A DNA stretch of 61,818 nt from Pseudomonas phage Itty13, in the sequence record MW460249.1. One strand, given 5' to 3'. Positions within the stretch are counted from its first letter, which is position 1. Each line of letters starts with the position of its first letter. The notes beneath the pieces are model-generated. The model was not told the DNA's origin. It worked only from the letters and a program-made list of their open reading frames with translations, and searched no databases. The translations under genes were made by a program, and so were the position numbers. This document shows positions 1 to 49,680 of this stretch, in pieces.

Positions 1-3000
1 CGCGCTTGTTCCACCGCTGTTTGGACATGGCGGTGTTGTACTTCTTCAGCGCGGCGGCCTCGGCCTCCTTCCGCGCGTCGCCGGTCAGGCCGTCGTCGCG
101 GATTTCCTGCATGTCCTTTTCGTACTGCCGCTCAGCCTTGCGGCCGGCGATGTCCAGGGCTTGCCCAAGGTTCTCCATCAGAATGGTGTCCAGCTCCTCG
201 GTCATCTGCTTGTAGGCGTCGCGGACCTCGCGGTACTGCGCCTGCAACTCGGGCGACAGCTTGCGGAAGCGCTCGGCCAGAGCCTTATGCGCCTCGCGGC
301 GCTGCTCGTCGGCCGCCTTCTTGGCGAAGGCCTCCATGGCGGCCTCGCTGTTCGGCCGGTACTGCATCACCTGCTCGTCGGCCTTGGTGATCGAGGTTTT
401 GAACGGCTCGGCCGGGTCGGTTTGCGCCAGGGTGGCCTCGTGCATGATGTCGGCCATCTCCTGCGCGCCCTTGCGGTCGAAGGCGATCAGCTTCAGCCAG
501 CGCTGGGCGATGGTGTCGAACTGCTGGTGCTTCTTCGAGCGGTAGGCGTCCATGTCGCGCTTCAGGTTCAGGTACTCCTGGGCCGGCTGGTTCCCGCCGG
601 CCAGCTCCTCGACCATTCGGTCCATGGGCGCCAGGGCCAGGACGCTCCACCGGCCGCCGCTGCGCGGCCCGGCCATGGCGTCGGTCAGCTTCCGGCTAAA
701 CCAGCCTTCCACCTCGGTATCGCTCGGCGCGTTCTCCGGCAGGCTGGCGATGGAGTACCGCTCCCCGTCCATCGAGGAGGCGCCCGGCGCCTGGGCCTCG
801 CTGCGGATCGCGGCCAGCGCCATGGCGCGCAGTTGCGCCGGCGTGACCTGCCCGAGCTGCACGCCGAAGGTGCGGAACAGGAAGTCCTTGATGGCGCCGA
901 TCACGTCGTCCACCCAGCGGCGAACGGCCGCCGGCGCGCTCTCGTACTCCTCGATGGCGTAGGCGCCGAACTCCTCGACCGCCAGCACGTCGCTCATCGG
1001 CAGGTAGCGCTGGGCGGTCTCGACGCGGGCACGGGCGGCGTCGAAGAACTGGCGCGCGCGGCCGTTCGACTTCTCGAACTGCTTGTACAGTTGCTCCAAG
1101 CGGACCATGAGCTGCGCCCAGCGGCGCGTCCCGACCAGCGGCCGGGCGCCGGAGTGGAACATCTCGTGCAGCAGGACGGCCAGGGCATTCTGCGGCGTGA
1201 CGTTGGCGGCGACCATATGGACGCTGCCGTCGTCGTAGGTCTTGGCCTGCATGCCCGGCACGCTCGCGCCCGGCACGGTGCTGGCGTCGGCATGCACGAC
1301 CAGCCGGCCGGCATCCATCAGCTTCTGCAACTGCGCGCCCAGCGGGCCGCTGGTGAGCACATCGCGAATGCGCTCGGGGCTCGCCGGCGCCGACAGGCTC
1401 ATCAGCTCGTAGCGCAGGTCCGGGCGACGGTAGTACCGATCATTCACGGACGGATCGTCCGGCTCCACCATGATCGTGCGAACGTCGTTGAGCATGGTGT
1501 GGTTGTAGTAGGTGATCCGACCGTCCGAGGTCTCGCGCAGCGTGACCATGGTGGTGATCGGCTCGCCATCCACGCGGATGCGGCGACCGAGGTAGTGGTA
1601 GGTGACGCCGTCAGCCTCGCGGCGGCCCAGGTACGGCGCGCCTTCCACGATGCGATCCAGCATCGGAATGGACTTCACCTTCGCCGGGTCGTTGCTGTTC
1701 GCCCGGCTCTTGGTGATGCCGGCCCGGTTGAAGTTGATGGCGCCGAGCTTCTGGTGCTGCATGGAGATGCCGCGCTTTGCCAGCAGGTCGTCGAAGACAC
1801 GGGCGCGAGCGTCCGCCACCGGCATGCTGGCGATTTCCGCCGGCGTGCGCAGGTCGATAGCGTCGGAGCGGATCAGCTCGTACATGCCGTCCGGCTGGAC
1901 GCTGAAGCGCTCGCCGTCCACCACGGCATCCACGCGGGCACCATCGTTCAGCGCGCGCTGGAGCTGGTCGGCGACCGAGGCCTTGACATCCGGCTGCTGC
2001 GGCGGCGTCTCCTTCTTCTTCGGCTTCAACTGGCCGAGCACGTCGTTATGGCGGGTCTTGGCCTGGGCCAGCTCGTCGCGCTTCGCCCAGTCGGCGGCCT
2101 GCTCCTCCAGTTTCGGGATGTCAGCCTGGGCGCGGGCCTTGCGCTGCTCGACCTGCTCGATGGCGCCGCCCAGGTCCTTGACGGTGTTGGTCACGCGCAT
2201 GGACAGGCCGAGCGGATCGGTGTCGAGTTCAAAGGCGGCGGTATAGGTGCCATCGCCCACGACCTGCGCCTCGTAGCGCTCCTTGGTGATGCGCTCCAGG
2301 CGAATTGTGAAGTCGCCGTAGCGGCCGATCTCGGCCTCCTCGGTTCCATTCGCCTCCATCTTGGCGGCCTGGGCCAGGATCGCCTCGCCGGCGTCCTTGC
2401 GCTTGTCGAACTCCTTGCCGTTGATGGTGATGACGAACTCCTTGGGCAGCTCGCGCTTTGCATCGGCGCGCAGCTCGTCCAGCAGGCGGTCAGCGCGCTC
2501 GATGCTGCGCTTCGCCGAGCGGACGCTGTCGCGCAGGCGGAACTGCTCGCGCTCGTGGTTCATCCGCTCGTTTTCGAGCTTCCTGATCTTCTGGCGCAGG
2601 CTCATCTCTTCGAGGATCAGCGGGTTGCCGCTGGCGGCCGCCTTCATCTCGGCGGCGTTCGCGGCCTCGCCGGCAACGTCCTCGATCTCGCGGGTGCCGG
2701 ACGCGCCCTTGCGCACCTGCTCGATGAAGTTGGCCTTGCCCTCGATGGTCTGCCACATGCGGCTGTCCAGGGTCTGCTTCGTGGCGTAGCGGAAGATCGC
2801 CACCTCGAAGCCCTCGGGGTCGCGCTCGTACAGCTTGTTGCCCTGGCGGATGATCCGCCCCTCGCGCTGCTCAAGATCGGACGGGCGCCACGGCGCGTCC
2901 ATGTGGTGCAGGGCGACCAGCCGGTCCTGCACGTTGGTGCCGGCGCCCATCTTCGCGGTGGAGCCGAACAGGAAGCGCACGCGGCCGGAGCGGACCTTGC

Positions 3001-6000
3001 CGAAAAGCTCCTCCTTCTGGAGGTCGGTCTTGGCGTCGTGGATGAAGGCGATCTCGTCGGCCGGGATGCCCTTGGCGATCAGCTTCTGCTTCAGGTCGTC
3101 ATAGACCGAGAAGTCACTGTCCAGGGCCATCAGCTCGTCGGGGCTGACCTTATCCAGCTCGGCGGCCGCGTCCTCGTCTCCCTCGTCGGCCCGGCGTGCG
3201 AGGTCGCGCAGGCGCTCGGCCTCGGCGGAACGAGCGTTCTTCGGCGTGGACAGGTCGATGAAGACCAGTTGCGTGCCGCGATCCTCGTGGAACTTGTCGT
3301 AGAGCGCGCGCATGTTGCCGGCGGCGACGTTGACCTTGCTGCCCTCGTAATCCGGGTAGCTCGGGTCGATCAGGCGCATATCCAGGGCGGCCTTCCGGGC
3401 GTCGCCCATGATCTTCAGCATGTTGTCCGAACCCTTCTCCGCCTTCTTCGGCAGGTTCTCGGAGCGCCAAACCAGCGTGCCGCGCGGGTAATCGTCGGTG
3501 TCGTTGCCGTCCGCGTCCTTGATCGGCTCGCCGATGTAGTTGGCCTGGTCCTGGCTGCGCGGGACGACGACGTTCTCCGGCTTGCCGCCGCGCACCTTCG
3601 GCACCGGCAGCTTCTTGCCCTGGGCGGCGAGCATGCGGTTGATGTCCGCGCGGTTCACCACGTCGGCGAAGGAGCCGTAGCGCTGCATCAGCTCCGGCAT
3701 GTTCACGAATTTCGCGAACCGGCTGTTCATCTTGTACTTGCCGGACGGCGACAGCTCCCAGTCGGTCACGACCTCGCCGAACATGCGCGCCCAGGCGTCG
3801 AAGTGGCTCAGGCCCTGGCCCTTCAGGTTCACATAGTCGAGATACCGCTGCATGGTGTACATCTCGGCCATGGTGTTGCTGATCGGCGTGCCGGTGGCGA
3901 AGACCACGTTGCGGCCGCCGGTGGCCTTCAGCACCTGCCGGACCTTCAGGAACAGGTCGGCCGCCTTCTGGCTGCCGGTCTGCGTGCCCAGGCCTGCGAC
4001 GCGGTTCATGGAGGTGGAGAACGCGAGGTTCTTGAACTCGTGCGCCTCGTCCACGAACAAGGCGTCCACGCCCAGCTCGCCCCAGTACAGGCTGTCGTCC
4101 TTGTTGTCGGCGTCGATCAGCTTCTTCAGCTTCTCCTGCAAGGCGTCGCGGCGCTTCTGCGTCTCCTTGACGTTCCGGCTGTTCTTGCCGTCCACCTGAC
4201 GCATCAGCTCGATGGAGGCGTCGAGGTCATCGACCTGCTCCTGAATGAATGCGGCCTGCTCGTGCGGCTCCACCTCGACCTTGCCGAAACTTGTGTGCGC
4301 GACGATCACCGCGTCCCAGTCGCCGGTGGCGATCCGGGCGAACAGGCGCTTGCGGTTCTCCTTCTCGAAGTCCTTCTTGGTCGCCGCGAGCACGTTGGCG
4401 CCAGGGTAGAGCTTGGTGAAGTCGGCCGCCCACTGGCTGACGAGGTGGTTCGGCACCACGAACATGGGCTTCTTGGCGAGGCCCATGCGGCGCAGCTCCA
4501 TCGCGCCGGCGACCATGGTGAAGGTCTTGCCGGCGCCGACGACGTGGTCCAGCAGGGTCGTGTCAGCCTGCACGATCCGCCACACGGCGTTCCCCTGGTG
4601 CGGGCGCAGGGAGATGATGTCGTCGCCGACCTTGCCGGGGAACGTGAGGTGCGAGCCGTCGTAGTCGCGCGCGACGTTGGTGTTGTAGGTGTCGTTGTAG
4701 ATGCGGCCCAGGCGCTCGCGCCGGGCATCGTCAGCCCACACCCAACGATCCCAGGCCTCCTTGACCGCGTTCACCTTGTCGTTGGCGAGCTGGGTTTCGC
4801 CCTCGTTCAGGGTGCGGCTGCCGTCCGGGTGCGAGTCGTAGACCTGTAGGGTCTTCTGGTTCGCCGCGGCTTCGAGGATGCCGGTCAGGGTGACGCGGCC
4901 GGTGGCGAAGCGCTGGTCGGCTGCGGTGGTGGCATCGACGTTCAGGAACGACCACTTCGCGGTCGCCGGGTTGTAGATGGCGCGGGCGCGGCTGCCCTCG
5001 GCGACGTGGTTGGCGAACTCGGCCATCACTTCCTGCGGCACCCATGGGGCGCCCGGCTTGACGTTGATGTCCACAGCCTCGATGTCGGCCGGCTGCACAC
5101 CTTCCAGGGCTTCGACGTTCGCGGCGAATGCCGGATCGCTCTTGGCCGCCTCGCGGGCCTTGGCCAGCTTCGCCTTCACGTTCCCGCTCAGGTACTCGTC
5201 GCGGGTGACGTAGCCCTTCACCGGGTCCTGATAGACGAGGTCGCCAAGCTCCTTGACGATGGTGTCCGGCGACTTGCCGTACAGCTCGCTCATCAGGTCG
5301 AGGTCTACGCGGCCGGTCTCGGCGAGGCTGGCGACCAGGGCGTCCTTCGCCGACGCGGCGCTGGTCGGCGCCTGATACGGCTGCTGGGTGCGCTTGCTGA
5401 AGATCGCCGCCTTCTGCGCGCTCGGCTTGCGAGCCTCCTCGCCGGTCTTCTTCGCCATGGCGGCGGACAGCCCCTTGTCGAAGTTGTCCTCCAGGGCGGA
5501 GAGCTGCGGCCACGTCGGATCGTCGCGGAACAGGCGCTTGTTGGCGTCGAGGTTGATCGGGCCGTTCGCCTTGACGAAGGCGTCATAGGCCGCGTTCAGC
5601 TCCTTGCGGGCGGCCTCGATCCGCTTGTCGGTGGCGCTCGGGTCCAGTTGCAGGCCGCGCAGGCGGGCCAGCACGTCGCGGATGCCGATCATGCCGACGA
5701 CGCGCTCGCGGGCCTTCTCGTTCGGGAAGGTCACGGCCTCGGCGGTGTTCTCGCCCAGCACGTCCTCGCCGCGCACCTTCACGGTGTCGCCGTCGAGGAA
5801 CATGGAGCCGACGCGCACGTTCTCGGCGCGCACGGTCTCGGCGGTCTCCGGCTTCACCGCCGCCGCCTGGGTCATGACGCCCTCGGGCAGGCGGTCGATG
5901 GCGCGCGCCAGCTCGGCCTGGGTGTCCTGGCCCTCGCGGGCGACCAGGGCGGGCTCGCCGTCGCGGTACATGGAGCCGTAGGCGCCGAAGTCGCCGAGCA

Positions 6001-9000
6001 TCATTTCCGGGTGGCGGTGGAAATACTCGTTCAGCGGAACGGTGTTGCCGTCCTTGTCGGTGTAGTCGCGCACCTCCATCCAGCTCTCGCCGGCTGGCTG
6101 CTCGCCCTCGGCGCGGCGGCGCATGAAGATGATGTCCGTGGTCACGGACGTGCCGGCGTTCGCCATGAAGGCGTCGTTCGGCAGGCGGATCGCGCCCAGG
6201 AAGTCGGCGCGGTCGGCCATGTAGCGGCGTGCCTTGTCGCCCGGCACGTCCATCATGCGGTTGGTCACGACCATGGCCAGCACGCCGCCGGGGCGCAGGC
6301 CGTCCAGGCTCTTGGCGAAGAAATAGTTGTGGATACTGAAGCCGCTCAGGTCCTTGCGGCGACCGTCGTACAGGCTCTCGCGGCCGAACGGCGGGTTGCC
6401 GATGGCGACATCGAAGTAGCCGTCAGGGATCAGGTAGTCCTGATAGCCCATGCGGGCGATCTTCGCCTCGGGATAGAGCTGGGTGGCGATTCCGCTGGTG
6501 ATGTGGTCCAGCTCCACGCCGTTCAACGCGGCGGCCTTGCGCAGCTCGTGCGGCATCAGGCCGAAGAAGTTGCCGGCGCCGACAGACGGCTCCAGCACCC
6601 GGCCACCGTTGAAGCCCAGGCGGGACACGGCGCCCCACATGGCGCGCACGATCTCCGGCGCGGTGTAGTGGGCGTTCTTCGAGGAGGATGCGGCGGCGCG
6701 GTATTCGTCGGCGGTCAGCAGGCCCTTCAGCTCGCCGACCTCGCTATCCCAGCCCTTGCTGGCGCTGCCGTCGCTGCGCTCGAAGGCCTGCGGGATGCCG
6801 CCCCAGCCGACGTATTTCGCCAGGATCGCCTGCTCGTCGGCGGTGGCGGCGCGGCCCTCGGCCTCCAACTGCTTCAGCAGGCGGATCGCCGCGACGTTGT
6901 TCCGGTATTTGGTCTTGGCGCCGCCCTGGCCGATCTCGTCGGCCTCGGTGATGGTGTAGTTCGCAGGGCGCTGCTCGGCGACGACGCCCCGCGACGGTGT
7001 TACGCCGCGCGGCTCTCGATCACCCCGTCCTCGGGATCGGGCTGGATTACCTGCATCGCCTCGTTGAACAGCGCTCCGGTCGCCGCCTCGTCCGCTTCGG
7101 TCTGCTCCTGCGGCGGGAACAGGTACAGCTCCCTCGTCGCTTCCCAGGCCTCGTGCGTCGTCATCCCGGCCGCTTCCAGCTCGCTCATTTCCGCGTGCGT
7201 CCGCTCCGCCGCTTCGCGCAGGGCGTTCCCGAGCTGGTTCTTGGCTTGCAGCTCCTTGTACCGATTCGGCAGGTGCTCCTTCCAGTGCTCCCGTGCTTGG
7301 CTGATCCAACTGTTCAGGTTCATTCGTGATCTCCATGGCCGGGCGGCGCATCTCCGGGGAAATGCCGCTGGCCTCCTGCATGATCATAGCAGCCAAGTCG
7401 GCGGCGGAAAGGTCCACCGGCGCCCAGCGGTTCGTTGCGGACGTGGCGAAGCGGTCGCCGGCCTTGCCGGACACGCGGAACATCACCTGCACGCCGCTGG
7501 GCGTGGTCGGGACGACGCCGCGCAGAGAGCCGCCGCCGATGGTGACATAGGCGTTGGCGCCGGTCTCCGGGTTGCGCATGGTCAGGGACACGTCGCCGCT
7601 AACGGCGATACCGGCCTCGTTCTTCGAGACAGGCTTCTCCAGGCGCCCCTTCTTGTCCTCGTGCGGCATGAAACCGTTGGGCTGCAACACGTCGGCCACG
7701 GCGCGCAGGTAGGAGGTCGCGTCCTTCAGGAACGCCTCTTTGGCCTTCTCGCCCTCGTCGGTGTAGCCGTCGATGTGATCGACGCCGAAATCCTGGGTCA
7801 GCGTGCGGTCGGACGCGGCGCCGGTCTTCACGGTGCGCTTCCGGGGCTTCTTCACCTCGGAGCCGAGCGCGCGGGCCTCCTCCTTCGGCAGCTCGCGGTT
7901 CAGCTCGGCATGCTCGCGCGCGGAGTCTTCCACGCTGGTCATGCCCTCGGTGTCGAGGCCCGGATAGTTCCGGGCGCCCTCCCAAAAGCTCAGCAGGTAC
8001 GGCTTGATCTTGTCGCCGAAGTCATCGGTCATCAGCTTGGCGTACTGGCCGAAGCTGCGCACGCCGGCCTCGATGTAGGCGCCGGCGATGGTCATGCCGT
8101 CGATCAGCACCTCTGGATCGATGCCGCTGTTCAACTGGCTCATCTTCGACTTCAGGCGGGCGCGGGCGGCGGCCACCTTGTCGGCGGTGAACAGCTTGTT
8201 GTCGGCGAAGATGTCGGCGGGCGCCTTGCCCTCGGTCGCGGCAGTGCCTATATTCTCAGGTGCGCCGGTCTCGCGGCTAGCTGTGTCATCCGCGAGTTTC
8301 GTAGTGGCGGTGTCCGTCCTAGCGTCACTACCGGCGTCTTTCACCTCATAGGCCGTCAGCAGCCAAGTCTTCGCATCCCCGTCCCAGGTCAGCCGCACGA
8401 TTGCCGTGCCCGACTTGTCGCGCAGGCGGATGCGGTTCTTCCCAGCCTGGGTGTCATCCTTCGATAGGCGCGAAATAAAGCCTTGCAGGTCGCCCAGCAC
8501 TTCCGGGTGCTTGGCGGCGATCTTCGCCAGCCCCATGCCTTCCTTGCCATTGCCCGGAGCCTCGCCCCACACGAGGTCGATGTCGCCCACGTCAGGGTGA
8601 TGCAGCGCTGCGGTCGCTTCGCCGGTCTTGTCGGCCATCAGGCGCTCGATGGCGGCCTGGGCGTTGTGCCGGTACTGGTCGTGGATGGGTCCGAACGGCC
8701 CGGTGTGTTGCGCTTCCGGCGCTCTCGTTTCGCTTTCCGAAACACTCGGGGCAGCAGAAGTCGCGCCGTTGTCCAGCGTGGCGCTCGGGAACTCGGCGAC
8801 AGCGGGCAGCAGGTCGCGGATCGGCGCGTCCAGGCGGATGATGCGCACGTCCTCTCCGGCGTCGCGCTTGGCGAGCCACTGGTGATGACCGTCCAGCACA
8901 TGGCCGTCGCTGGAGACGAGAATGGCGCGGTCGCCGCCGGTGAACTCCTTCGCCTGGGCGACCTTCTCGGGCGAGAACTCCGCCTGCGTCGGCTTCAGGC

Positions 9001-12000
9001 TGTCGGCTGGGACGGTCTGCTCCTCGTGCGCGATGCCGCGCGCGTTCAGGAAGTTGACCATGGCGCCGCGATGCTCGGCCTTGATCTGCGGCATCTCGGC
9101 TCGCGGCACGCTCAGGGTGCCGGAGTCTGGCGCGAAGGCGGACCACTCGCCGTCGATGTCCTGGCCGCGCATGTCTCCGCCGGCTTCGTCCTGGGTCTGC
9201 TGCTTGGCGTAGGTGACGCCGGCGCGGCTGGCTCGCTCCAGCTCGGCCCGGCTCAGGTTGGTCCGGGAGTTTGTTTCCGCATTGCGGACGACGACCTCGC
9301 CGTTCTTCTCGATGCGCTCGATGACGTAGGGCTTTCCGCCGGAGGCATAGCCGACATCGGCGGACGGCACGATGGTGTCGCCGACCTCGGCGCCGATCAG
9401 CTTGCGAGCGCGGTTGATGTGGCCAGAGGTCTTCGGCTGTTCCTGCTGCGCGGTAGGCGCCTGGGCGGCCGGCTCTTGCTCGGCAGGCGCCTTGCGTTTC
9501 TGGATGATCAGCTTTCCATCGACTGCCTTGGTGCGGAACTCCAGGCCAGGATTGAACTTCCGCATGTCTACGACGGCTTCCATGACCTCCTTTCGGCTGC
9601 GGTCGGTGAAGCCGGGCACGGCTTCCCAACCGTCCTGGGGCGCCTTCTCGCGGATCTCGAAGCGCGAGCGGCCGGCTTCGACAACCTCGTGACTGTCGGC
9701 CAGCTTCTTCTTGGCGATGAAGGCGTCGGCCTTCTCGCGGCTACCGAACCACTTCACGGGCGCCTGCTCGACCGGCTGCTCCGCCTTCACCTCCGGGGAG
9801 GCCTGCTGCTCGGGCTGCGCCGGCTGCTCCTCGACCGGAGCGGCCTGGGCCTTTTTCGCCTCGATGGCGGCCTCTACCTTGCGGCGCTCCTGAATGAGCG
9901 TCTTGTTCCATCCGCCAGCGTTGCGGGCCTGACCGGCGAGATACTTCAGGCGCTCGCGCAGCTCGGGCTCGTCCATCTCCTCGTAGGTGCGCGCGGGCTT
10001 GCGCTCCTCGGGAGCGGGCTCGGCCACCTGTTCGGTTTCGCCGAACAACTGCGGTTGCTCGGCCGCCTGTTCGGCCTGGGCTGGTGCCGGCTCCTCCGCC
10101 GGCTGTGCGGGCTGCTGCTCCTGCGCGGGCGCGGCAGGCTCCTCGACAGGCGCCGGCTGGGCGGCCTGCTGGGCGGCGGCTGCCTGCTCCTCGGGCACGA
10201 CGGTGACGGCGCCGGAGGCGACCTCGTCGGCGGTGATCTGATAGCTCTGGCCGTCGTCGCCACGGATCATCATGCCTTCCGGGGTCTCGGAGACCACGGC
10301 GCCGGTGATCGGATCGACACCTTCGGCGACCAGGGCGACACGGCGGCCATCGGCGGCGCTCTCGTCGGCGCGGCCGGGCTGGGCGCTCTGGAGCGCGCGA
10401 CCGAGCGGGCCGGACGGTGCCGGCTGCGGCGCGGGCTGGGGAGCGGGCTGGGGAGCGGGCTGGGGCTCCGGCTGCGGCGCGGGCGGGGCGGCCTGGACCT
10501 CCTGCGGTGCCTCGGCGGCCGGGGTCGTCTCAGCCTGGGCGGCCGGAGTGGTCGCTGCCGGCTGAGCGGCCGGGGTGGCGCCGTCCTCGCTGACGGTAGG
10601 CTCGATGCGCTCGCGCTGCTCCGCCGGCTTGCGGCTGGTCAGCTTCTCGGCGCCGGCGAACGTGCCACCCAAGGCGCCGCCGGTCATGGCGCCGATGATG
10701 GCGCTGTCGCGCACCTGTACCAGCGCTTCCTTCAAGGTCATGTCCGGGCTGATGTAGCCCTTGTCGATGCCGGCCTGGAGCGCGGCAGTCACCGCCTCCT
10801 GAGCGCCCTCCAAGACGGTGCCTTCGAGCGCCTTTTTCATGATGCCGGCGCCGGGCTTGAGCAGGCGTCCGAGAACAAGCGCCTCGGGTGCAGCCTCGGC
10901 GGCGGCAGTCAGCAGGGCATAGGTCTGCGCCTGCTCCTCGCTCAGGCCGTTCTCTCGGCCGGTGGCGTAGGCCTGACCGCCCACCTGTCCGCCCATGATG
11001 GCGGTTGCGATGCGCGGATTTCGGGTGACGACGGCAGCAGCCAGCATCGGCGCCATCTCGGCCAGCGAGCCGATGGCGGCGCTGCCGTAGTAGGCCATGC
11101 TCTCCGGCTCGGGGCGAACCTCGACCATCGTCTTCTTGGTCTGCTCGCGCCAGTCACGCGCGAAGGCCGAAATCTCCTTCGGGTTGATGATGCCGGCGGC
11201 GTCGAGCTGCTTCAGTTGCTGCTCGTTGAGCGACTGGGCGATGTTCTGCTTGACGGTGCGCAGCGCTTCGGGAATCGGCGTCTTCGGGTCGATCAGCTTC
11301 TCGTTGCCGGCCCAGGCCAGCAGCTTCATGTCGCCGGGCGTGATGCCGTACTGGCGCGCGCGGTCAGCGATGAAGCGCTCGCGCTCCAGGCCCAGGTCCT
11401 CGCCCGCCATCTGGATTAGGCCGGCAATCGACTGCTGGAAGCGCTCTGGCACGTTGGCCAGCGATGCGCCCGTGGCTTCGAGGAAACCCTGATACTCGCG
11501 GGTGTCCTTCGGCGGCAGGCCGGCGGCCAGACGGTTCTGGTTCTCCAGGGTGAGCGGCGACGGCTGGGCCTCGGCCTGCTGTTGCTGCTGGCGCTGCTGG
11601 TTCTCGATGGTGAGCGGAGACGGTGCGCTGACCTGAACAAACGGCTGGGTGGCGGCGAGCGCATCGCCCTGCATCATGGCCGCGCGGCGCTGGTAACGCT
11701 CGACCTGATCGGGCGTCAGCGCCGTGTAACGGCCGGGCTCCTCCTCGTCGAGCATCTTCTGGAGCTGCGCGACGGCCTGGGGCTGATCCGGGTTGGCGGG
11801 CGCACCAGCGCCAGCGGTGCCGGTCGGCGTGAACTGGCCGCCCCACTTGGCGACCTTCTCCATCACTTCCTCGCCGTAGCGAGCGGTCTTCGGCCCCCAC
11901 TGGCGGCGATCCGGGCCGGCGAAGTGCTCCTTGACCGCATCCTCCATGGAGTAACCCTTGTCCAGGCGCTCGCGTATCTGGCGCGCGGCGGCGTCGATGG

Positions 12001-12328
12001 ACTGAGCCGGATCGTAGGGGTTGATGCCGAGGCTGGCGGCAGTGCTGTCGAGATACTGCATCAAGCCCTTGGCGCGGCCCCACTTGGTAGGCTGGCCGAG
12101 CGCGCGCGGGTTGAAGCGCGACTCCTGATCGCCGAGCGCGAGCAGGACGTTGACCGGGACGTTGTACTTGACCGCCGACTGCTCGAACAGCGGCATAAGA
12201 TCGGTGGGAGCCGAGGAGGCGGAAGCCGCTGGCTGCCGCTCCGTAGCGTTGAACTGGAAGTCCGGCAGGCCTGCGGACGGAGCTTCGGACAATACCTTTT
12301 CGAGCGGCGACAGCGGTGCTTTTGCCAC
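1..12328 (-). CDS. Giant multidomain virion/ejection protein (SLT lytic transglycosylase - Gly-rich hydrophobic - Pro/Gln linkers - ParB-like nuclease - N6-adenine MTase - DEAH/SNF2 helicase; DarB-like). 3' end lies beyond the window start.
   Basis: Minus strand. GTG start at ~12328 with RBS AGGAAAG, immediately after the stop of the upstream gene. No complete minus-strand ORF is listed in this frame class (coordinate mod 3 = 1) anywhere in 1..12340, so the frame is open for more than 4100 codons. My own translation shows: SLT motif (YNVPVNVLLALGDQESRFNP...GLMQY); ParB-like (AILVSSDGHVLDGHHQWLAKRDAGEDVRIIRL) at ~8780-9060; MTase motif I VLEPSVGAGNFFG (~6560-6600) and motif IV NPPFG (~6385-6400); helicase Walker A HVVGAGKTFTMVAG (~4520-4545), DEAH (VDEAHEFKN, ~4040-4060), motif III FATGTPISN (~3885-3900), motif VI QREGRIIRQGN (~2840-2875). 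The plus-strand ORFs 161..4849, 5006..8467 and 8483..11419 are the antisense shadow. Confidence 0.8.
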   Translation of the reverse strand, partial: MAKAPLSPLEKVLSEAPSAGLPDFQFNATERQPAASASSAPTDLMPLFEQSAVKYNVPVNVLLALGDQESRFNPRALGQPTKWGRAKGLMQYLDSTAASLGINPYDPAQSIDAAARQIRERLDKGYSMEDAVKEHFAGPDRRQWGPKTARYGEEVMEKVAKWGGQFTPTGTAGAGAPANPDQPQAVAQLQKMLDEEEPGRYTALTPDQVERYQRRAAMMQGDALAATQPFVQVSAPSPLTIENQQRQQQQQAEAQPSPLTLENQNRLAAGLPPKDTREYQGFLEATGASLANVPERFQQSIAGLIQMAGEDLGLERERFIADRARQYGITPGDMKLLAWAGNEKLIDPKTPIPEALRTVKQNIAQSLNEQQLKQLDAAGIINPKEISAFARDWREQTKKTMVEVRPEPESMAYYGSAAIGSLAEMAPMLAAAVVTRNPRIATAIMGGQVGGQAYATGRENGLSEEQAQTYALLTAAAEAAPEALVLGRLLKPGAGIMKKALEGTVLEGAQEAVTAALQAGIDKGYISPDMTLKEALVQVRDSAIIGAMTGGALGGTFAGAEKLTSRKPAEQRERIEPTVSEDGATPAAQPAATTPAAQAETTPAAEAPQEVQAAPPAPQPEPQPAPQPAPQPAPQPAPSGPLGRALQSAQPGRADESAADGRRVALVAEGVDPITGAVVSETPEGMMIRGDDGQSYQITADEVASGAVTVVPEEQAAAAQQAAQPAPVEEPAAPAQEQQPAQPAEEPAPAQAEQAAEQPQLFGETEQVAEPAPEERKPARTYEEMDEPELRERLKYLAGQARNAGGWNKTLIQERRKVEAAIEAKKAQAAPVEEQPAQPEQQASPEVKAEQPVEQAPVKWFGSREKADAFIAKKKLADSHEVVEAGRSRFEIREKAPQDGWEAVPGFTDRSRKEVMEAVVDMRKFNPGLEFRTKAVDGKLIIQKRKAPAEQEPAAQAPTAQQEQPKTSGHINRARKLIGAEVGDTIVPSADVGYASGGKPYVIERIEKNGEVVVRNAETNSRTNLSRAELERASRAGVTYAKQQTQDEAGGDMRGQDIDGEWSAFAPDSGTLSVPRAEMPQIKAEHRGAMVNFLNARGIAHEEQTVPADSLKPTQAEFSPEKVAQAKEFTGGDRAILVSSDGHVLDGHHQWLAKRDAGEDVRIIRLDAPIRDLLPAVAEFPSATLDNGATSAAPSVSESETRAPEAQHTGPFGPIHDQYRHNAQAAIERLMADKTGEATAALHHPDVGDIDLVWGEAPGNGKEGMGLAKIAAKHPEVLGDLQGFISRLSKDDTQAGKNRIRLRDKSGTAIVRLTWDGDAKTWLLTAYEVKDAGSDARTDTATTKLADDTASRETGAPENIGTAATEGKAPADIFADNKLFTADKVAAARARLKSKMSQLNSGIDPEVLIDGMTIAGAYIEAGVRSFGQYAKLMTDDFGDKIKPYLLSFWEGARNYPGLDTEGMTSVEDSAREHAELNRELPKEEARALGSEVKKPRKRTVKTGAASDRTLTQDFGVDHIDGYTDEGEKAKEAFLKDATSYLRAVADVLQPNGFMPHEDKKGRLEKPVSKNEAGIAVSGDVSLTMRNPETGANAYVTIGGGSLRGVVPTTPSGVQVMFRVSGKAGDRFATSATNRWAPVDLSAADLAAMIMQEASGISPEMRRPAMEITNEPEQLDQPSTGALEGAPAESVQGAASQEPARERPARSGGADARGNERAGSGRDDDARGLGSDEGAVPVPAAGADRSGRGGDRSAVQRGDAGNPARSRGRGDREPRGVTPSRGVVAEQRPANYTITEADEIGQGGAKTKYRNNVAAIRLLKQLEAEGRAATADEQAILAKYVGWGGIPQAFERSDGSASKGWDSEVGELKGLLTADEYRAAASSSKNAHYTAPEIVRAMWGAVSRLGFNGGRVLEPSVGAGNFFGLMPHELRKAAALNGVELDHITSGIATQLYPEAKIARMGYQDYLIPDGYFDVAIGNPPFGRESLYDGRRKDLSGFSIHNYFFAKSLDGLRPGGVLAMVVTNRMMDVPGDKARRYMADRADFLGAIRLPNDAFMANAGTSVTTDIIFMRRRAEGEQPAGESWMEVRDYTDKDGNTVPLNEYFHRHPEMMLGDFGAYGSMYRDGEPALVAREGQDTQAELARAIDRLPEGVMTQAAAVKPETAETVRAENVRVGSMFLDGDTVKVRGEDVLGENTAEAVTFPNEKARERVVGMIGIRDVLARLRGLQLDPSATDKRIEAARKELNAAYDAFVKANGPINLDANKRLFRDDPTWPQLSALEDNFDKGLSAAMAKKTGEEARKPSAQKAAIFSKRTQQPYQAPTSAASAKDALVASLAETGRVDLDLMSELYGKSPDTIVKELGDLVYQDPVKGYVTRDEYLSGNVKAKLAKAREAAKSDPAFAANVEALEGVQPADIEAVDINVKPGAPWVPQEVMAEFANHVAEGSRARAIYNPATAKWSFLNVDATTAADQRFATGRVTLTGILEAAANQKTLQVYDSHPDGSRTLNEGETQLANDKVNAVKEAWDRWVWADDARRERLGRIYNDTYNTNVARDYDGSHLTFPGKVGDDIISLRPHQGNAVWRIVQADTTLLDHVVGAGKTFTMVAGAMELRRMGLAKKPMFVVPNHLVSQWAADFTKLYPGANVLAATKKDFEKENRKRLFARIATGDWDAVIVAHTSFGKVEVEPHEQAAFIQEQVDDLDASIELMRQVDGKNSRNVKETQKRRDALQEKLKKLIDADNKDDSLYWGELGVDALFVDEAHEFKNLAFSTSMNRVAGLGTQTGSQKAADLFLKVRQVLKATGGRNVVFATGTPISNTMAEMYTMQRYLDYVNLKGQGLSHFDAWARMFGEVVTDWELSPSGKYKMNSRFAKFVNMPELMQRYGSFADVVNRADINRMLAAQGKKLPVPKVRGGKPENVVVPRSQDQANYIGEPIKDADGNDTDDYPRGTLVWRSENLPKKAEKGSDNMLKIMGDARKAALDMRLIDPSYPDYEGSKVNVAAGNMRALYDKFHEDRGTQLVFIDLSTPKNARSAEAERLRDLARRADEGDEDAAAELDKVSPDELMALDSDFSVYDDLKQKLIAKGIPADEIAFIHDAKTDLQKEELFGKVRSGRVRFLFGSTAKMGAGTNVQDRLVALHHMDAPWRPSDLEQREGRIIRQGNKLYERDPEGFEVAIFRYATKQTLDSRMWQTIEGKANFIEQVRKGASGTREIEDVAGEAANAAEMKAAASGNPLILEEMSLRQKIRKLENERMNHEREQFRLRDSVRSAKRSIERADRLLDELRADAKRELPKEFVITINGKEFDKRKDAGEAILAQAAKMEANGTEEAEIGRYGDFTIRLERITKERYEAQVVGDGTYTAAFELDTDPLGLSMRVTNTVKDLGGAIEQVEQRKARAQADIPKLEEQAADWAKRDELAQAKTRHNDVLGQLKPKKKETPPQQPDVKASVADQLQRALNDGARVDAVVDGERFSVQPDGMYELIRSDAIDLRTPAEIASMPVADARARVFDDLLAKRGISMQHQKLGAINFNRAGITKSRANSNDPAKVKSIPMLDRIVEGAPYLGRREADGVTYHYLGRRIRVDGEPITTMVTLRETSDGRITYYNHTMLNDVRTIMVEPDDPSVNDRYYRRPDLRYELMSLSAPASPERIRDVLTSGPLGAQLQKLMDAGRLVVHADASTVPGASVPGMQAKTYDDGSVHMVAANVTPQNALAVLLHEMFHSGARPLVGTRRWAQLMVRLEQLYKQFEKSNGRARQFFDAARARVETAQRYLPMSDVLAVEEFGAYAIEEYESAPAAVRRWVDDVIGAIKDFLFRTFGVQLGQVTPAQLRAMALAAIRSEAQAPGASSMDGERYSIASLPENAPSDTEVEGWFSRKLTDAMAGPRSGGRWSVLALAPMDRMVEELAGGNQPAQEYLNLKRDMDAYRSKKHQQFDTIAQRWLKLIAFDRKGAQEMADIMHEATLAQTDPAEPFKTSITKADEQVMQYRPNSEAAMEAFAKKAADEQRREAHKALAERFRKLSPELQAQYREVRDAYKQMTEELDTILMENLGQALDIAGRKAERQYEKDMQEIRDDGLTGDARKEAEAAALKKYNTAMSKQRWNKR
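7000..7323 (-). CDS. Embedded or overprinted 107-aa ORF in an alternate frame inside the linker of the giant gene (hypothetical acidic helical protein)
   Basis: ATG with RBS GGAG 7 nt upstream. The product (MNLNSWISQAREHWKEHLPNRYKELQAKNQ...) has normal protein composition and GC3 of about 88%. Over the same 320 nt the giant-gene frame has GC3 of about 45% and translates to G/R/D/A-rich low complexity. The ORF is bounded by an upstream stop 21 codons before the ATG and by TAA at 7000. Confidence 0.45.
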   Translation of the reverse strand: MNLNSWISQAREHWKEHLPNRYKELQAKNQLGNALREAAERTHAEMSELEAAGMTTHEAWEATRELYLFPPQEQTEADEAATGALFNEAMQVIQPDPEDGVIESRAA

Positions 12329-12337
12329 GGGCTTTCC

Positions 12338-13570
12338 TCAACGATAAATCAGGGAGTTCGTCTTGTTGTCCCACACTGGGATGCCACGGCCGGATTGTAC
12401 CGGAGCGGCAGCGGCCGGCGCACCACTGGGCGCGCTTCCAGGCGATCCGCCGCGCTTCGACAGCAGCTCGTCCTGCATCTTCATGACATCGTAGGCGCGG
12501 CGGACCTTCTCGTCGTCCGACAGGTCTTGGAAGTCGAGGCTCTTGTTCAGCGTCTCCAGAATGGAGTTCAGCCGGTTCTGCGGCGACATCTGCTGCGCCT
12601 CGATGCCGACCAGTCGCGGCGCCTGGGCGCGGATGAAGTCGTCGCTGTAGCCCTGAGACTTCAGCCATGCGCTGACCGCTTCGGCATCGCGTACCTTGGT
12701 GCTGGCGGCGCCGGTGCGCAGCTTCTCCGCTTCCTCGGCGCGGCGCAGGTTCGATGCGTTGCCCTGGGCCTCCAGGCGGTAGGCTTGGTCGAGGCTCTTG
12801 CCCTGGATGTCGCGCTGGAACTTGCGGTTCTCCTTCGCCAGCTCGGCGCGCGCGGCCTGGGCCTGCTTCAACTGATCGACGCCGTAGGACAGTACCTCGG
12901 CCGGCGACAGAGCGTTCAGGCCGAGGCGTGCCACGTCCTCGCCGTCGTAGGTCTGCTCGGTGACTTTGCCCTTCGGGTCCTTGAACTTGATCTTGTAGCC
13001 CAGCAGGTTGCCCTTATCGTCCTTCACATCGTCGATGCTCACGGCTTCCATGCCGTCTTGGAAATAGCCCTGCTGGTTGTAGGCGGCCATCAGGTTCTTC
13101 TTGAACGCCTCGCGGTCGCCCGTCTGGAACGCGCGCACGGCGCCGGCCCATGCCTTGACGCCCTTCTGCACGTTCTGATCCTGCATCCACTTTTCCAGCG
13201 CCTGGGCCTTCTCCACATCGCCGGTCTGCATCCAGTGCTCTTGGTACTTCGGGAGCACCGACTTGGCGTAGTAGTCCATGAAGGAGCCGACCTGTTTTTC
13301 GGCGGCTGCGCGCGCGTCACCCTCGCTCGCGTAGCTCTGGCCGCCTACCTCGTAGGTCGGCACGGTGACACCGTTCTCGGACCTGCTGCCGACGTTGATC
13401 GACCGGCCGATGTCAGCCTCGCGCGCGGCCTTCGCCGCATCGGTGCCCTGGGTGGCGATGTCGCGCAGCGCCTTGCGGTCGCGCGCCTTCTGGATCGTGT
13501 CGTAGGCCTGCACGCCCTGGTTCAAGCCGGCCATGAACGCGCCGACGCCGATACCGAAATTGCCTGCCAT
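12338..13570 (-). CDS. Internal virion protein (410 aa from ATG 13570; track ORF extends to GTG 13630)
   Basis: Long minus ORF with protein-like composition (MAGNFGIGVGAFMAGLNQ...). Its stop overlaps the RBS/start of the giant gene. Position between ejection-type proteins supports an internal virion role. Confidence 0.65.
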   Translation of the reverse strand: MAGNFGIGVGAFMAGLNQGVQAYDTIQKARDRKALRDIATQGTDAAKAAREADIGRSINVGSRSENGVTVPTYEVGGQSYASEGDARAAAEKQVGSFMDYYAKSVLPKYQEHWMQTGDVEKAQALEKWMQDQNVQKGVKAWAGAVRAFQTGDREAFKKNLMAAYNQQGYFQDGMEAVSIDDVKDDKGNLLGYKIKFKDPKGKVTEQTYDGEDVARLGLNALSPAEVLSYGVDQLKQAQAARAELAKENRKFQRDIQGKSLDQAYRLEAQGNASNLRRAEEAEKLRTGAASTKVRDAEAVSAWLKSQGYSDDFIRAQAPRLVGIEAQQMSPQNRLNSILETLNKSLDFQDLSDDEKVRRAYDVMKMQDELLSKRGGSPGSAPSGAPAAAAPVQSGRGIPVWDNKTNSLIYR

Positions 13571-13841
13571 CTTCAGGCCCCCGTATCCGAGTTGATGATG
13601 CCGCCGAGGATGTTCGCCAGCGCGCTCCACGACCCGTCGCCGCTGTTCGCCGGCGCGGGTGCGGCGATTTCAGCCGATCCGACATCGCCGCCGACGAGGT
13701 TCTGACCGATGCCAAAGCCGACCGACTTCTGATCGCCGGTCGCGGCCGCTGCCGGTGCATCCTTCTTCTTGCCGTTCTTGAAAGACTTGCCGAGGGCCAT
13801 GCCGCCGGCGAGCCCCTGCGCGAACGCTCCAAGCCCTACGC

Positions 13842-15323: not shown

Positions 15324-15747
15324 CGTTCGATACCTCCGGTAGCCAAGTGCAGTCGCGCCGGAGCATGCCGAGCACGATCAGGTCGTCGTCGCCCATGGCC
15401 TCAACCATGGTCCCCTCGGGCTTGAATCCGAGCCACATGTCGAGCTTGAGCGCGGCCTTGTTCTTGGCCGGCACCAGGGCGGTTACTCGGTTGAGACCGA
15501 GTTGAATGAAGGGGTAGGAGAAGGCTGCGGCGAGGAAGCCGCGCGTACACCAGCGCCGGCCGCCATCGCTGACGACGTGCATGTTGCACATGTGGTCTGT
15601 GAAGTTGTTGTACAGAGTTACGACCACAAGCCGGCCGTCGATCTCCATCCCCAGGGTGTGAGTGTCGCCGTCCACGGCGGCATCAGGATAGTGCTCGATT
15701 GCCCAGTCCTTCAGCCGTTCCGGGTCGTTGTAGATGATCCGCGCCAT
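15310..15747 (-). CDS. GNAT-like acetyltransferase-fold protein (145 aa)
   Basis: The ORF track extends to 15771; I take the ATG at 15747, which has an RBS. The motif ...LGFKPEG... and overall pattern resemble the GNAT fold. An operator-motif copy sits immediately upstream. Confidence 0.45.
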   Translation of the reverse strand: MARIIYNDPERLKDWAIEHYPDAAVDGDTHTLGMEIDGRLVVVTLYNNFTDHMCNMHVVSDGGRRWCTRGFLAAAFSYPFIQLGLNRVTALVPAKNKAALKLDMWLGFKPEGTMVEAMGDDDLIVLGMLRRDCTWLPEVSNDGRR

Positions 15748-15759
15748 AGCATCACCGTT

Positions 15760-15803
15760 TGCCGAATGCAAACAGTCTATGCGAAAGCGAAACAGCGGGC
15801 CAG
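15760..15803. promoter_or_regulatory. Operator motif pair (GTTTGCCGAATGCAAACAG and TGCGAAAGCGAAACAGCGG)
   Basis: Palindromic TTTGC-N5-GCAAAC element abutting the RBS of the GNAT-like gene. Confidence 0.45.
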
Positions 15804-19764: not shown

Positions 19765-19903
19765 CTCTGCGCCCTCTTCGTGATGTCGAAAACGGTCCTT
19801 CCCGATGATCAGGACCGTGATGACAGCGACGAAGAGAAGCGCGAGATATTCATGCCCGCGATTGTCGGCGGCCGAACGTCCGATGGTCAAGCGCGCGCAC
19901 AAT

Positions 19904-49600: not shown

Positions 49601-49680
49601 AATCGAAACGCCGATTCAAGAAAAGCAATTGCGAAATCGAAACAGGCGGTGCATAAGGGGCTCAGATTCTGGAGTGCAGT
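49560..49680. promoter_or_regulatory. Divergent immunity-region operator/promoter (two operator motifs: TTTGCATAATCGAAACGCC and TTGCGAAATCGAAACAGGCGG)
   Basis: Intergenic region between the Cro/CII-like gene (minus) and the CI-like gene (plus). A TTGCGA-17nt-CATAAG sigma70-like spacing is present. Confidence 0.5.

Follow-up and report, generated by a model that had tools for sequence, protein, structure and literature searches.

The polyvalent-protein framework (Iyer, Burroughs, Anand, de Souza and Aravind 2017; PMC5512222) brings together MPTase, the methyltransferase (MTase)-helicase dyad, ParB, PBECR and LPD domains, and DarB of phage P1 is the archetype of its “methylase-helicase dyad” (PMC5512222). 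P1 DarB (YP_006479, 2255 amino acids) is a myovirus protein with the partners DarA, Hdf, DdrA, DdrB and Ulx. Among podophages, the founding “DarB-like” giant virion proteins are gp75 of Burkholderia phage Bcep22 (NP_944303, 4602 amino acids) and gp69 of JC1 (Lessievirus), the latter represented by 51 unique peptides in CsCl-purified virions analyzed by mass spectrometry (PMC9144972). Another giant of this kind is gp27 of Erwinia phage PEp14 (YP_005098431, 4914 amino acids; Pavtokvirus). T7 gp16 and N4 vRNAP (gp50), finally, are experimentally established ejected internal podophage virion proteins; in N4, a 383-kDa multi-domain “beads-on-a-string” protein is ejected via the tail channel together with two partner proteins (PMC13434306).

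The window analyzed here, the 61,818 nucleotides of Pseudomonas phage Itty13 (MW460249.1), is a temperate podophage genome of the Bcep22/PEp14 type, complete and circularly closed at 61.8 kb and linearized inside its largest gene. This gene encodes a protein of 4753 amino acids (520.6 kDa) and occupies 14,262 of the 61,818 nucleotides, or 23% of the genome. The best explanation of the locus, in which considerable confidence can be placed, is that this complete circular podophage encodes a polyvalent DarB-like/PLxRFG virion protein that is ejected and carries multiple enzymes. The gene lies on the minus strand with its neighbors as follows.

1..12328, minus strand: giant gene, N-terminal 4109 codons and the first base of codon 4110 (stop-free frame; GC3 0.90; PHROG 10089, 3443 bits)
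59885..61818, minus strand: giant gene, last two bases of codon 4110, C-terminal 643 codons and stop (circular translation; junction-crossing HSPs; PHROG 10089)
12329..12345, minus strand: Shine-Dalgarno GAGGAAAG, overlapping the TGA stop of the gp74-like gene (upstream sequence)
12338..13630, minus strand: gp74-like virion structural protein gene, 430 amino acids, no Cys (tblastn with PEp14 gp26 and Bcep22 gp74; PHROG 9667)
13842..15323, minus strand: gp70-like virion structural protein gene, 493 amino acids, no Cys (tblastn; PHROG 8003)
161..11419, plus strand: three antisense shadow ORFs (161-4849, 5006-8467, 8483-11419), non-genes (GC1 above GC3; no PHROG match)

Modular architecture of the giant protein

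From the N to the C terminus, the chain passes from a lytic transglycosylase through hydrophobic Ala/Gly segments and linkers rich in Pro, Gln, Ala and Glu to a ParB/Srx fold, PBECR1 and an N6-adenine MTase, and then to a SNF2/DEAH helicase, LPD3, a lethal-factor-like HExxH zincin, LPD39 and a PLxRFG domain.

11948..12190, minus strand: SLT lytic transglycosylase, residues 47-127 (Pfam PF01464, 41.6 bits, cutoff 21.3)
10646..11089, minus strand: Ala/Gly-rich, moderately hydrophobic segments, residues 414-436, 469-490 and 535-561 (Kyte-Doolittle, 19-residue window, 1.0-1.57)
9719..10621, minus strand: low-complexity Pro/Gln/Ala/Glu linker, residues ~570-870 (low-entropy windows)
8765..9151, minus strand: ParB/Srx-fold domain, residues 1060-1188 (motifs LKPTQ 1111-1115 and DGHHQ 1146-1150)
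8339..8605, minus strand: PBECR1 (Pfam PF18809, 33.4 bits, cutoff 27.6)
6959..7261, minus strand: Arg/Gly/Asp-rich low-complexity linker before the MTase, residues ~1690-1790 (G19 R17 A15 D10 per 100 residues)
6113..6682, minus strand: N6-adenine DNA methyltransferase, residues 1883-2072 (Pfam Eco57I, 37.1 bits, cutoff 25.3)
2642..4765, minus strand: SNF2/DEAH-type SF2 helicase, residues 2522-3229 (Pfam ResIII, SNF2-rel and Helicase_C)
1508..1777, minus strand: LPD3 (large polyvalent protein-associated domain 3), residues 3518-3607 (Pfam PF18798, 43.4 bits)
791..1459, minus strand: HExxH zincin-like domain, residues 3624-3846 (HEMFH 3721-3725; invariant EEFGAYAIE block from 3785)
68..697, minus strand: LPD39, residues 3878-4087 (Pfam PF18858, 187.9 bits)
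59930..61783, minus strand: PLxRFG (“tail-700”) C-terminal domain, residues 4122-4739 (NCBIfam NF032893, 757.9 bits, cutoff 100)

An earlier note on this DNA had read an SLT domain, an N6-adenine MTase and a DEAH/SNF2 helicase from the letters alone, and the Pfam matches listed above confirm all three. Every motif that it quoted, including the DGHH of the ParB-like segment, can be located in the translated protein: QESRFNP (68-74, which holds the catalytic Glu) and GLMQY (88-92) in the transglycosylase; motif I EPSVGAGNF (1913-1921) and motif IV NPPF, within NPPFG (1978-1982), in the MTase; and GAGKT (2598-2602), DEAH (2760-2763), TGTP (2812-2815) and QREGR (3154-3158) in the helicase. Four domains, namely the SLT, the MTase, the helicase and the zincin, have their catalytic motifs intact in the sequence. 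The note had missed the C-terminal PLxRFG domain and four further modules, PBECR1, LPD3, the HExxH zincin and LPD39.

Its remaining domain claim, a ParB-like nuclease, holds in part. Residues 1060-1188 show the alpha+beta fold of the ParB/Srx superfamily and carry DGHH at 1146-1150, but the segment has no ParBc or DdrB-ParB match in Pfam at E<=1 and lacks the conserved active-site Arg, which is replaced by the Gln of DGHHQ and is seen in no homologues but the most distant. Searching PDB sequences with this segment, both as a single sequence and as a profile, returned nothing meaningful. Judged from its sequence, the ParB/Srx module may be non-catalytic.

The zincin domain also occurs in small proteins, where its neighbors are LPD3, PBECR3, PBECR1 and ART, and is likely the “MPTase” of polyvalent proteins; a Pfam MPTase match is absent, and a profile of the segment searched against the PDB gave only spurious matches, all caused by the ragged end of a single sequence in the alignment. 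A match to the DdrB metallopeptidase was also considered but found no sequence-level support in BLASTP.

Between and around these enzymes lie regions of simpler composition. The N-terminal hydrophobic segments are weak, with a Kyte-Doolittle maximum of 1.57, and part of the linker that follows them is encoded by DNA tandem repeats of 12-27 nt at 10419-10574 (TRF). At the other end of the protein, the NF032893 match covers model positions 49-679 of 681, with PDMSMRKGF at residue 4173 as the PLxRFG motif region, and hydropathy identifies moderately hydrophobic segments within the domain at residues 4264-4302, 4475-4509 and 4520-4543. Permissive Pfam searches (E<=1) of eight inter-domain segments gave nothing credible at residues 130-1240, 1330-1800, 2080-2580 and 3190-3900. 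NCBIfam models for DISARM DrmD, MADS2 and a PLD antiphage protein matched the first 4109 residues only below threshold, reflecting helicase and MTase domains of the same superfamilies and not membership in those systems.

LPD3, LPD39 and PBECR1, all above their Pfam cutoffs, stand beside the SLT, MTase and helicase domains in one chain, the combination that typifies polyvalent proteins. With the proteins of that framework (PMC5512222) the giant shares these three domains, the MTase-SNF2 dyad, a module of the ParB superfamily, a lysozyme/transglycosylase and, probably, the lethal-factor-like metallopeptidase hub; it differs from them in that its ParB-fold and zincin modules have diverged beyond what Pfam models recognize.

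Relationship to P1 DarB and to the podophage giants

The relationship to P1 DarB that the earlier note had proposed is real, though distant. BLASTP yields three collinear HSPs covering the MTase and both helicase lobes (E 8e-20, 4.5e-14 and 9e-6). The first of these, the MTase domain, is 29% identical to P1 DarB residues 87-275, while the helicase aligns to residues 784-1174 and 1461-1572. Both proteins have, in collinear arrangement and with motifs intact, an EcoKI/TaqI-like N6-adenine MTase with an SF2 helicase fused C-terminally to it, but this dyad accounts for only about one quarter of the giant protein (~1350 of its 4753 residues), at 22-29% identity. P1 DarB is half as large, lacks the other eight modules and contains nine Cys.

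Nor was similarity detected within the giant protein to four of the partners with which DarB works, and on which it depends, in P1. When the giant was compared by BLASTP with DarA, DdrA, DdrB and Ulx, nothing better than E 0.46 was obtained, and phmmer, run alongside, gave no matches. Because homologues of these four partners were not found within the giant protein, the packaging logic of P1 is not applicable to it.

These comparisons bear directly on the possibility that the giant is an enlarged P1 DarB orthologue, a head-internal protein that serves solely to shield the entering DNA, as P1 DarB does in cis, against type I restriction, its extra domains being accessory or vestigial. The collinearity of the MTase and both helicase lobes is what such an orthologue would show, and the database label of the family, “DarB-like antirestriction,” points the same way. 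The term “antirestriction” is nevertheless carried over from P1 DarB, with 22-29% identity over roughly a quarter of the protein. Orthology in this sense is unlikely, given how small and divergent the homologous part is, the failure to find DarA, DdrA, DdrB or Ulx within the giant, the conservation of SLT, PBECR1, zincin, LPD39 and PLxRFG with their catalytic motifs kept, and the nine Cys of P1 DarB against none in the podophage giants.

A far closer relationship links the protein to the giants of other podophages, as the earlier note had also suggested in naming Bcep22 gp75. PHROG 10089 (“DarB-like antirestriction”) is matched at 3443 bits over profile positions 1026-3620, and tblastn reveals identical synteny, with a gp74-like gene, the giant gene and then the lysis genes, so that the giant gene is the last of the virion module. 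An N-terminal SLT and a central MTase-SNF2 helicase are recognized by Pfam in the giant protein, PEp14 gp27 and Bcep22 gp75 alike.

PEp14 gp27 occupies the same slot, with a gp74-like gene before it and endolysin, holin and Rz genes after. Its N-terminal SLT is 51% identical, its MTase-helicase core 63% and its C-terminal LPD39 and PLxRFG 47%. It differs in having LPD37 in place of LPD3 and the HExxH zincin, in the absence of PBECR1 by Pfam, and in an N-terminal third that is just 34% identical. With the proteins of Bcep22 and JC1 the shared features are genome type, gene order, SLT, MTase, SNF2 helicase and LPD3, an HExxH domain that is 49-51% identical, and a giant gene that makes up ~22-23% of the genome. 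Bcep22 gp75, however, ends in LPD38, lacks LPD39 and PLxRFG, has no PBECR1 match, is just 34% identical in the core and aligns elsewhere in patches only. The nearest uncultured relative, IMG/VR contig UViG_3300024239_000003, is 94-96% identical over residues 1666-4753 but just 65% over residues 635-1483. At the nucleotide level, megablast against phages and plasmids found at most ~77% identity in the MTase-helicase core, with identities of at least 95% elsewhere in the window confined to short pieces. An exact-sequence look-up of the major capsid protein returned no record, and weak hints as to the host favor Pseudomonas or Azotobacter.

The giant protein is thus a well-supported and essentially ordinary member of the described Bcep22 gp75/PEp14 gp27 family. 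What it adds to that family is a new domain combination, in which ParB/Srx, PBECR1, LPD3, zincin, LPD39 and PLxRFG surround the DarB dyad, and an illustration of how modules within the family are shuffled between genera.

Cysteine absence and the proposed ejection of the giant protein

The giant protein (4753 residues), PEp14 gp27 (4914), Bcep22 gp75 (4602) and three IMG/VR relatives contain no Cys at all; the other proteins of the giant-bearing phages contain 0.75% Cys. T7 gp15 and gp16, P22 gp7, gp20 and gp16, and N4 vRNAP are likewise Cys-free, and the remaining proteins of T7, P22 and N4 are not, a correlation seen in a few phages and not in a statistical survey. If Cys absence is a general rule for ejected proteins of podophages with Gram-negative hosts, it would provide a simple predictor from sequence alone. 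The pattern is cheap to test at scale and would strengthen the case for the injection of half-megadalton proteins into the host.

In its broad organization the giant resembles T7 gp16 and N4 vRNAP, which are also very large, multi-domain and Cys-free and are encoded beside two smaller Cys-free virion proteins. Sequence similarity ends at the SLT domain: residues 39-118 align to T7 gp16 residues 7-90 (BLASTP, 33% identity, E 2e-5), and no other HSP between T7 gp16 and the rest of the protein falls below E 0.8. The payloads also differ, as the giant carries an MTase, a helicase, nuclease-like domains and a peptidase where T7 gp16 and N4 vRNAP carry a DNA-binding hub or an RNA polymerase.

The gp70-like and gp74-like proteins are candidate co-ejected partners of the giant. 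In a more tentative proposal, possible but by no means the expected outcome, the name “DarB” would be mistaken: the giant would join these two proteins as the third and largest component of a Cys-free ejectosome and would pass through the tail as a beads-on-a-string polyprotein. Its SLT head would open the wall, and its own lethal-factor-like zincin would then cleave it to release a mixture of anti-defense enzymes.

A purely structural role, as a tail or ejectosome component equivalent to T7 gp16 that builds a trans-envelope DNA conduit and for which the enzymatic “payload” is minor, must be considered quite unlikely. The N-terminal SLT like that of T7 gp16, the lack of Cys as in known conduit proteins, the position of the gene at the end of the virion module adjoining two genes for Cys-free virion proteins, and the NCBIfam name “tail-700” for the C-terminal domain would all suit it. 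Similarity to T7 gp16 is nevertheless undetectable beyond the SLT, and the PLxRFG domain is not a universal conduit element, because Bcep22 gp75 lacks it. Moreover, the MTase and helicase are the best conserved part of the protein across genera (63-96% identity) with motifs intact, which argues for selection on enzymatic function.

It is very improbable, on the other hand, that the protein acts wholly outside the virion, in intracellular DNA metabolism or replication, as was suggested for the PLxRFG protein in a paper on Klebsiella Lastavirus. MTase, helicase and nuclease-like domains would be at home in such a role, but the gene lies in the late virion module with structural genes on one side and the lysis cassette on the other, the JC1 homologue was detected in purified virions, and neither an SLT domain nor a complete lack of Cys has a rationale in a cytoplasmic replication enzyme.

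For the preferred reading, an ejected polyvalent multi-enzyme protein, a plausible course of events can be proposed. The protein would be synthesized late, as the product of the last virion-module gene, and packaged inside the capsid, as mass spectrometry has shown for its homologue JC1 gp69. Upon infection it would leave through the short tail as a loose “beads-on-a-string” chain, probably with the two Cys-free proteins encoded upstream. The N-terminal SLT would cut peptidoglycan in the manner of T7 gp16-N, contact with membranes or the ejection conduit would fall to the hydrophobic segments together with the PLxRFG domain at the C terminus, and the lethal-factor-like zincin may cleave the chain so that its modules come apart. 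Once in the cytoplasm, the dyad of MTase and SNF2 helicase would act on the entering DNA as P1 DarB does, blunting restriction, and the ParB/Srx-fold and PBECR1 modules may target nucleic acids of the host or of competitors.

Coding strand and continuity across the ends of the genome

The earlier note had described a minus-strand frame open for more than 12.3 kb, and none of the in-frame stops that would contradict it was found on inspection: the frame is free of stops from 12337 to 1, a run of 4112 sense codons with one base left over. The nearest upstream in-frame stop on this strand, at 12338-12340, is that of the gp74-like gene. The GTG start at 12328-12326 lies 9 nt past this stop with the Shine-Dalgarno in front of it, and is supported by PEp14 gp27, the alignment of which begins with its residue 8 at residue 7 of the giant. 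The 9-nt spacer suggests that translation of the two genes is coupled.

An open frame by itself is weak evidence here, because GC is 68% and the plus frame opposite the giant gene is interrupted by just three stops over 12.3 kb. Codon-position GC is more informative. In the minus frame GC1/2/3 are 0.69/0.46/0.90, while the long plus-strand ORFs have GC1 (0.87-0.94) above GC3 (0.66-0.74), a shadow pattern that identifies the minus strand as the coding strand. The three plus ORFs have no match among PHROG families and, as the earlier note had held, are antisense shadows; they should be suppressed in annotation. That the giant frame is instead a chance or antisense frame, or a gene fusion created by assembly error, with the plus ORFs real, can be set aside as practically negligible in probability, since, for all the long spurious ORFs that high GC yields and the three stops of the opposite strand, it is refuted by codon-position GC, by eleven recognized domains and motifs and the PHROG 10089 match where the plus ORFs have none, and by uninterrupted homologues of 4500-4900 amino acids in many independently sequenced phages.

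The gene had been thought to run off the edge of the window, and formally, in the linear window, it does; its last 644 codons and stop, however, are present at 61818..59885. Translated as a circle, the frame stays in phase over the 1|61818 junction and ends with the stop codon at 59885-59887. Codon 4110 is spanned by a single HSP with PEp14 gp27 (residues 3897-4753) and likewise by one with an IMG/VR contig (residues 3443-4753, 93.6% identity). The two parts of the protein match collinear positions of PHROG 10089, the C-terminal part scoring 775 bits against positions 4001-4647 of the profile, which has 4647. The lysis cassette that succeeds the giant gene in PEp14 sits at 59.7-58.0 kb of the window. 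A check for terminal redundancy found no common 15-mers between the first and last 3 kb, and the junction segment found no relative among 185,579 reference genomes. For annotation, a single 14.3-kb gene is to be called over the contig ends, and the 630-residue ORF at 59885-61777 is not a separate protein. No terminator-like site occurs downstream of the giant gene. The endolysin gene is preceded by one weak promoter-like site.

The giant gene and its continuation across the ends of the record

From 12337 to position 1 of the minus strand, the frame that holds the GTG at 12328 runs for 4112 sense codons, with a base to spare and no in-frame stop, the last stop in the translated window lying at 12338-12340. 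The frame of more than 12.3 kb described in the earlier note is therefore open as claimed. At 68% GC, such openness alone is not proof of a gene, because over the same 12.3 kb no more than three stops interrupt the plus frame opposite. The coding strand is instead decided as minus by codon-position GC, which is 0.69/0.46/0.90 for positions 1/2/3 of the minus frame. The plus-strand ORFs at 161-4849, 5006-8467, and 8483-11419 (GC1 0.87-0.94, GC3 0.66-0.74) present the mirror image of a coding frame, as antisense shadows should, and match no PHROG family; both results agree with their earlier dismissal as shadows. The sequence just before the GTG is GAGGAAAG and shares bases with the TGA of the gp74-like gene upstream. 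As a predicted start, the GTG is well placed, since Erwinia phage PEp14 gp27 (YP_005098431) aligns from its residue 8 onward to residue 7 of the giant protein.

The gene had been taken to run off the window edge, which holds for the linear end, but it is completed at 61818..59885. In circular translation, the spare base at position 1 forms a Glu codon with 61818 and 61817, followed by 643 further open codons and a minus-strand stop at 59885-59887. The complete gene (14,262 nt, 23% of the window) encodes 4753 aa, or 520.6 kDa. Within the reach of sequence comparison, four independent lines show the 1/61818 join to be real: PEp14 gp27 gives a single HSP across codon 4110 (residues 3897-4753); the 62.4-kb IMG/VR contig UViG_3300024239_000003 gives one mid-contig HSP (residues 3443-4753, 93.6% identity), with two more IMG/VR contigs giving the same junction-spanning HSP at 65% identity; the “DarB-like antirestriction” profile PHROG 10089 matches the N-terminal part with its positions 1026-3620 and the far-end part with positions 4001-4647 of 4647; and the window at 59.7-58.0 kb encodes endolysin, holin, and Rz, which in PEp14 come next after the giant gene. 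From this junction-crossing evidence, the window appears to be an entire genome, circular or circularly permuted, that was opened within the giant gene. Terminal redundancy is absent, as the first and last 3 kb have no 15-mers in common; headful packaging and circularly permuted genomes are reported for JC1-type phages (PMC9144972). The ORF-list entry at 59885-61777 (minus strand, 630 aa) is the C terminus of the giant gene, with its PLxRFG domain, and, annotated alone, would wrongly become a “PLxRFG domain-containing protein” in its own right.

Modules and relatives of the giant protein

Modules of the giant protein, numbered from the GTG on the minus strand (Pfam domains are above their gathering cutoffs)
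aa 47-127, SLT (Pfam)
aa 414-561, moderately hydrophobic Ala/Gly-rich segments
aa ~570-870, P/Q/A/E-rich linker, partly from DNA tandem repeats at 10419-10574
aa 1060-1188, ParB/Srx module
aa 1242-1330, PBECR1 (Pfam)
aa ~1690-1790, R/G/D-rich linker
aa 1967-2043, Eco57I-type N6-adenine MTase (Pfam)
aa 2572-2767, ResIII (Pfam)
aa 3091-3163, Helicase_C (Pfam)
aa 3518-3607, LPD3 (Pfam)
aa ~3650-3846, HExxH zincin module
aa 3878-4087, LPD39 (Pfam)
aa 4122-4739, PLxRFG (“tail-700”), NCBIfam NF032893, 758 bits

The SLT, N6-adenine MTase, and helicase domains read by eye in the earlier note are all recovered, with the quoted catalytic motifs intact (QESRFNP and GLMQY in SLT; motif I and motif IV, NPPF, in the MTase; GAGKT, DEAH, TGTP, and QREGR in the helicase), as are its Gly-rich hydrophobic segments and Pro/Gln-rich linkers. 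A SNF2-related match in the ResIII region scores 21.4 bits, just under the 24.9 cutoff. The tandem repeats (periods 12, 24, and 27 nt) encode a (PQPA)n-type linker and could drive variation in its length.

The claimed ParB-like nuclease domain is accepted as a fold. Neither Pfam at E<=1 nor PDB sequence searches return anything for residues 1040-1240; 35 homologues have in common MPQI, LKPTQAEF, and ILVSxDGxVLDGHH(Q/R)W, and the ParB/Srx assignment is sound. Nuclease activity is uncertain, because Gln takes the place of the conserved Arg (DGHHQ instead of DGHHR; aa 1146-1150, window 8879-8893, minus strand). This Gln is common to the close homologues, Arg being found only in the two most distant (P0027 and P0035), a pattern that suggests altered or lost catalysis in the Gln-bearing subfamily.

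The HExxH module was absent from the earlier domain list. Its HExFH motif is nearly invariant, and an EE(F/L)GAYA(I/V)E block ~60 residues further on is invariant. A tblastn search finds this domain in 53 phage records, among the matches listed always within a giant DarB-like/PLxRFG gene, and in bacterial and metagenomic proteins it adjoins LPD3, PBECR3, PBECR1, or ART-PolyVal. It is probably, although not proven to be, the “MPTase” of polyvalent proteins, a hub linked by Iyer et al. to the lethal-factor fold and proposed to split these proteins into functional units (PMC5512222).

PEp14 gp27 (4914 aa) resembles the giant protein in SLT (51% identity), the core (63%), and LPD39 plus PLxRFG (47%), but carries LPD37 in place of LPD3 and the zincin and has no match to PBECR1. 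Burkholderia phage Bcep22 gp75 (NP_944303; 4602 aa) has SLT, the MTase-helicase dyad (34%), LPD3, and the zincin (about 50%) in common with it, but ends in LPD38 without a PLxRFG domain. The match to PHROG 10089, together with the same gene order, substantiates the kinship with gp75 proposed earlier. For P1 DarB (2255 aa), the alignment is limited to the MTase (29% identity, E 8e-20) and one stretch in each helicase lobe (22% and 25%), and P1 DarA, DdrA, DdrB, and Ulx give no match to the giant protein. The name “DarB-like” thus suits the central dyad and no other part, and action “like DarB” would be predicted for no more than one of its roughly ten modules. Membership in the Bcep22/PEp14 giant family and in the polyvalent-protein class is clear; the family is built of modules, of which this protein presents a further reshuffling. 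IMG/VR already contains an uncultured relative with a nearly identical C-terminal two-thirds. Overall, the open frame and its interpretation stand, corrected to a complete, wrapped 4753-aa gene, a longer domain list, and a narrower use of “DarB-like.”

Absence of cysteine and the case for ejection

The giant protein contains no cysteine, nor do PEp14 gp27, Bcep22 gp75, the three IMG/VR relatives, or the upstream gp70-like and gp74-like proteins of the window phage, PEp14, and Bcep22. Other Bcep22 and PEp14 proteins contain 0.75% (152 of 20,158 residues), a rate that would leave 4753 residues free of cysteine with a probability of about e^-36. Cysteine is likewise absent from the proven ejection proteins T7 gp15 and gp16, P22 gp7, gp20, and gp16, and N4 vRNAP (0 of 3491 residues). 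In T7, P22, and N4, the portal, terminase, tailspike, and polymerase proteins have 4-12 each. P1 DarB has 9, whereas the podophage giants have none. Our reading is that cysteine is selected against where a protein has to traverse the oxidising periplasm or to refold once through a narrow channel. As a correlation in a small sample, it supports ejection of the giant protein and possibly of its gp70-like and gp74-like neighbors. Cysteine is not mentioned in a review of ejection proteins (PMC8954989).

In phage JC1, 51 unique peptides of the homologue were recovered from purified virions, and the giant family gene occupies about 22% of each genome (PMC9144972). The giant protein would itself be ejected. 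Its N-terminal SLT is homologous to the SLT of T7 gp16, which has an established function in the passage through peptidoglycan (PMC8954989). In N4, a 383-kDa multi-domain protein exits the capsid via the tail with two helper proteins, an exit credited to its beads-on-a-string build (PMC13434306); the long low-complexity linkers of the giant protein fit this picture. The practical outcome is correct annotation of the giant gene, the cysteine-free signature being the only lead of wider interest.

Genome context

Gene order in the window (minus strand except where the pair is divergent)
34.3 kb, terS, followed by terL
30464-30883, small DNA methyltransferase-like gene, followed by portal and gp52-like
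~27067-27204, CsrA-like carbon-storage-regulator
26.9-25.8 kb, major capsid protein, followed by several virion proteins
20284-21822 and 18628-20115, two tail fibres, followed by a gp67-like internal virion protein
15328-15771, acyl-CoA N-acyltransferase (PHROG 4470; 51% identical to Bcep22 gp69)
13842-15323, gp70-like virion protein
12338-13630, gp74-like virion protein, followed by the giant gene and the lysis cassette
56377-57639, tyrosine integrase
49319-50253, XRE-type repressor/regulator pair, divergent

From terS to the lysis cassette, the minus-strand order matches Bcep22 and PEp14 gene for gene. The integrase and the XRE-type pair point to a temperate phage. Genes for an Erf-like annealing protein, a recombination exonuclease, and a DnaC-like loader are found elsewhere. 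The whole window behaves as a circularly closed ~61.8-kb temperate podophage genome, opened in its largest gene. A serine tRNA is reported in each Bcep22-like phage compared in the JC1 paper (PMC9144972), whereas no tRNA gene was found in the whole window.

The acyltransferase gene lies inside the virion module, with the gp67-like gene on one side and the gp70-like gene on the other; a PAPS reductase gene (gp73) is found close by in Bcep22 but has no match in the window. Here, in Bcep22, and in PEp14 alike, the CsrA-like gene immediately precedes the major capsid gene; its JC1 homologue was detected in virions (PMC9144972). The small methyltransferase-like gene, kept in Bcep22 (gp50) and PEp14 (gp6), is a second MTase of the genome, separate from that of the giant protein. 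Both tail fibres have the N-terminal ~100 aa in common with Bcep22 gp64-66 and PEp14 gp20 but differ in their C-terminal receptor-binding parts, a pattern typical of cassettes through which host range is swapped.

Megablast against phage and plasmid collections returned no record that is close in DNA sequence; in the giant-gene region, identity peaks at ~77% over the MTase-helicase core. A look-up of the exact major capsid protein sequence likewise found no record. Outside the giant gene, 14 phage records have their best match in 12400-37000 at 95-99% identity, and 3 reach at least 99% in 37000-61818, the organisms matched over 12400-61818 being largely Pseudomonas and Ralstonia phages. These matches of at least 95% are presumably short, because they are absent among the top matches listed, and they might represent modules exchanged recently, or clues to the host.
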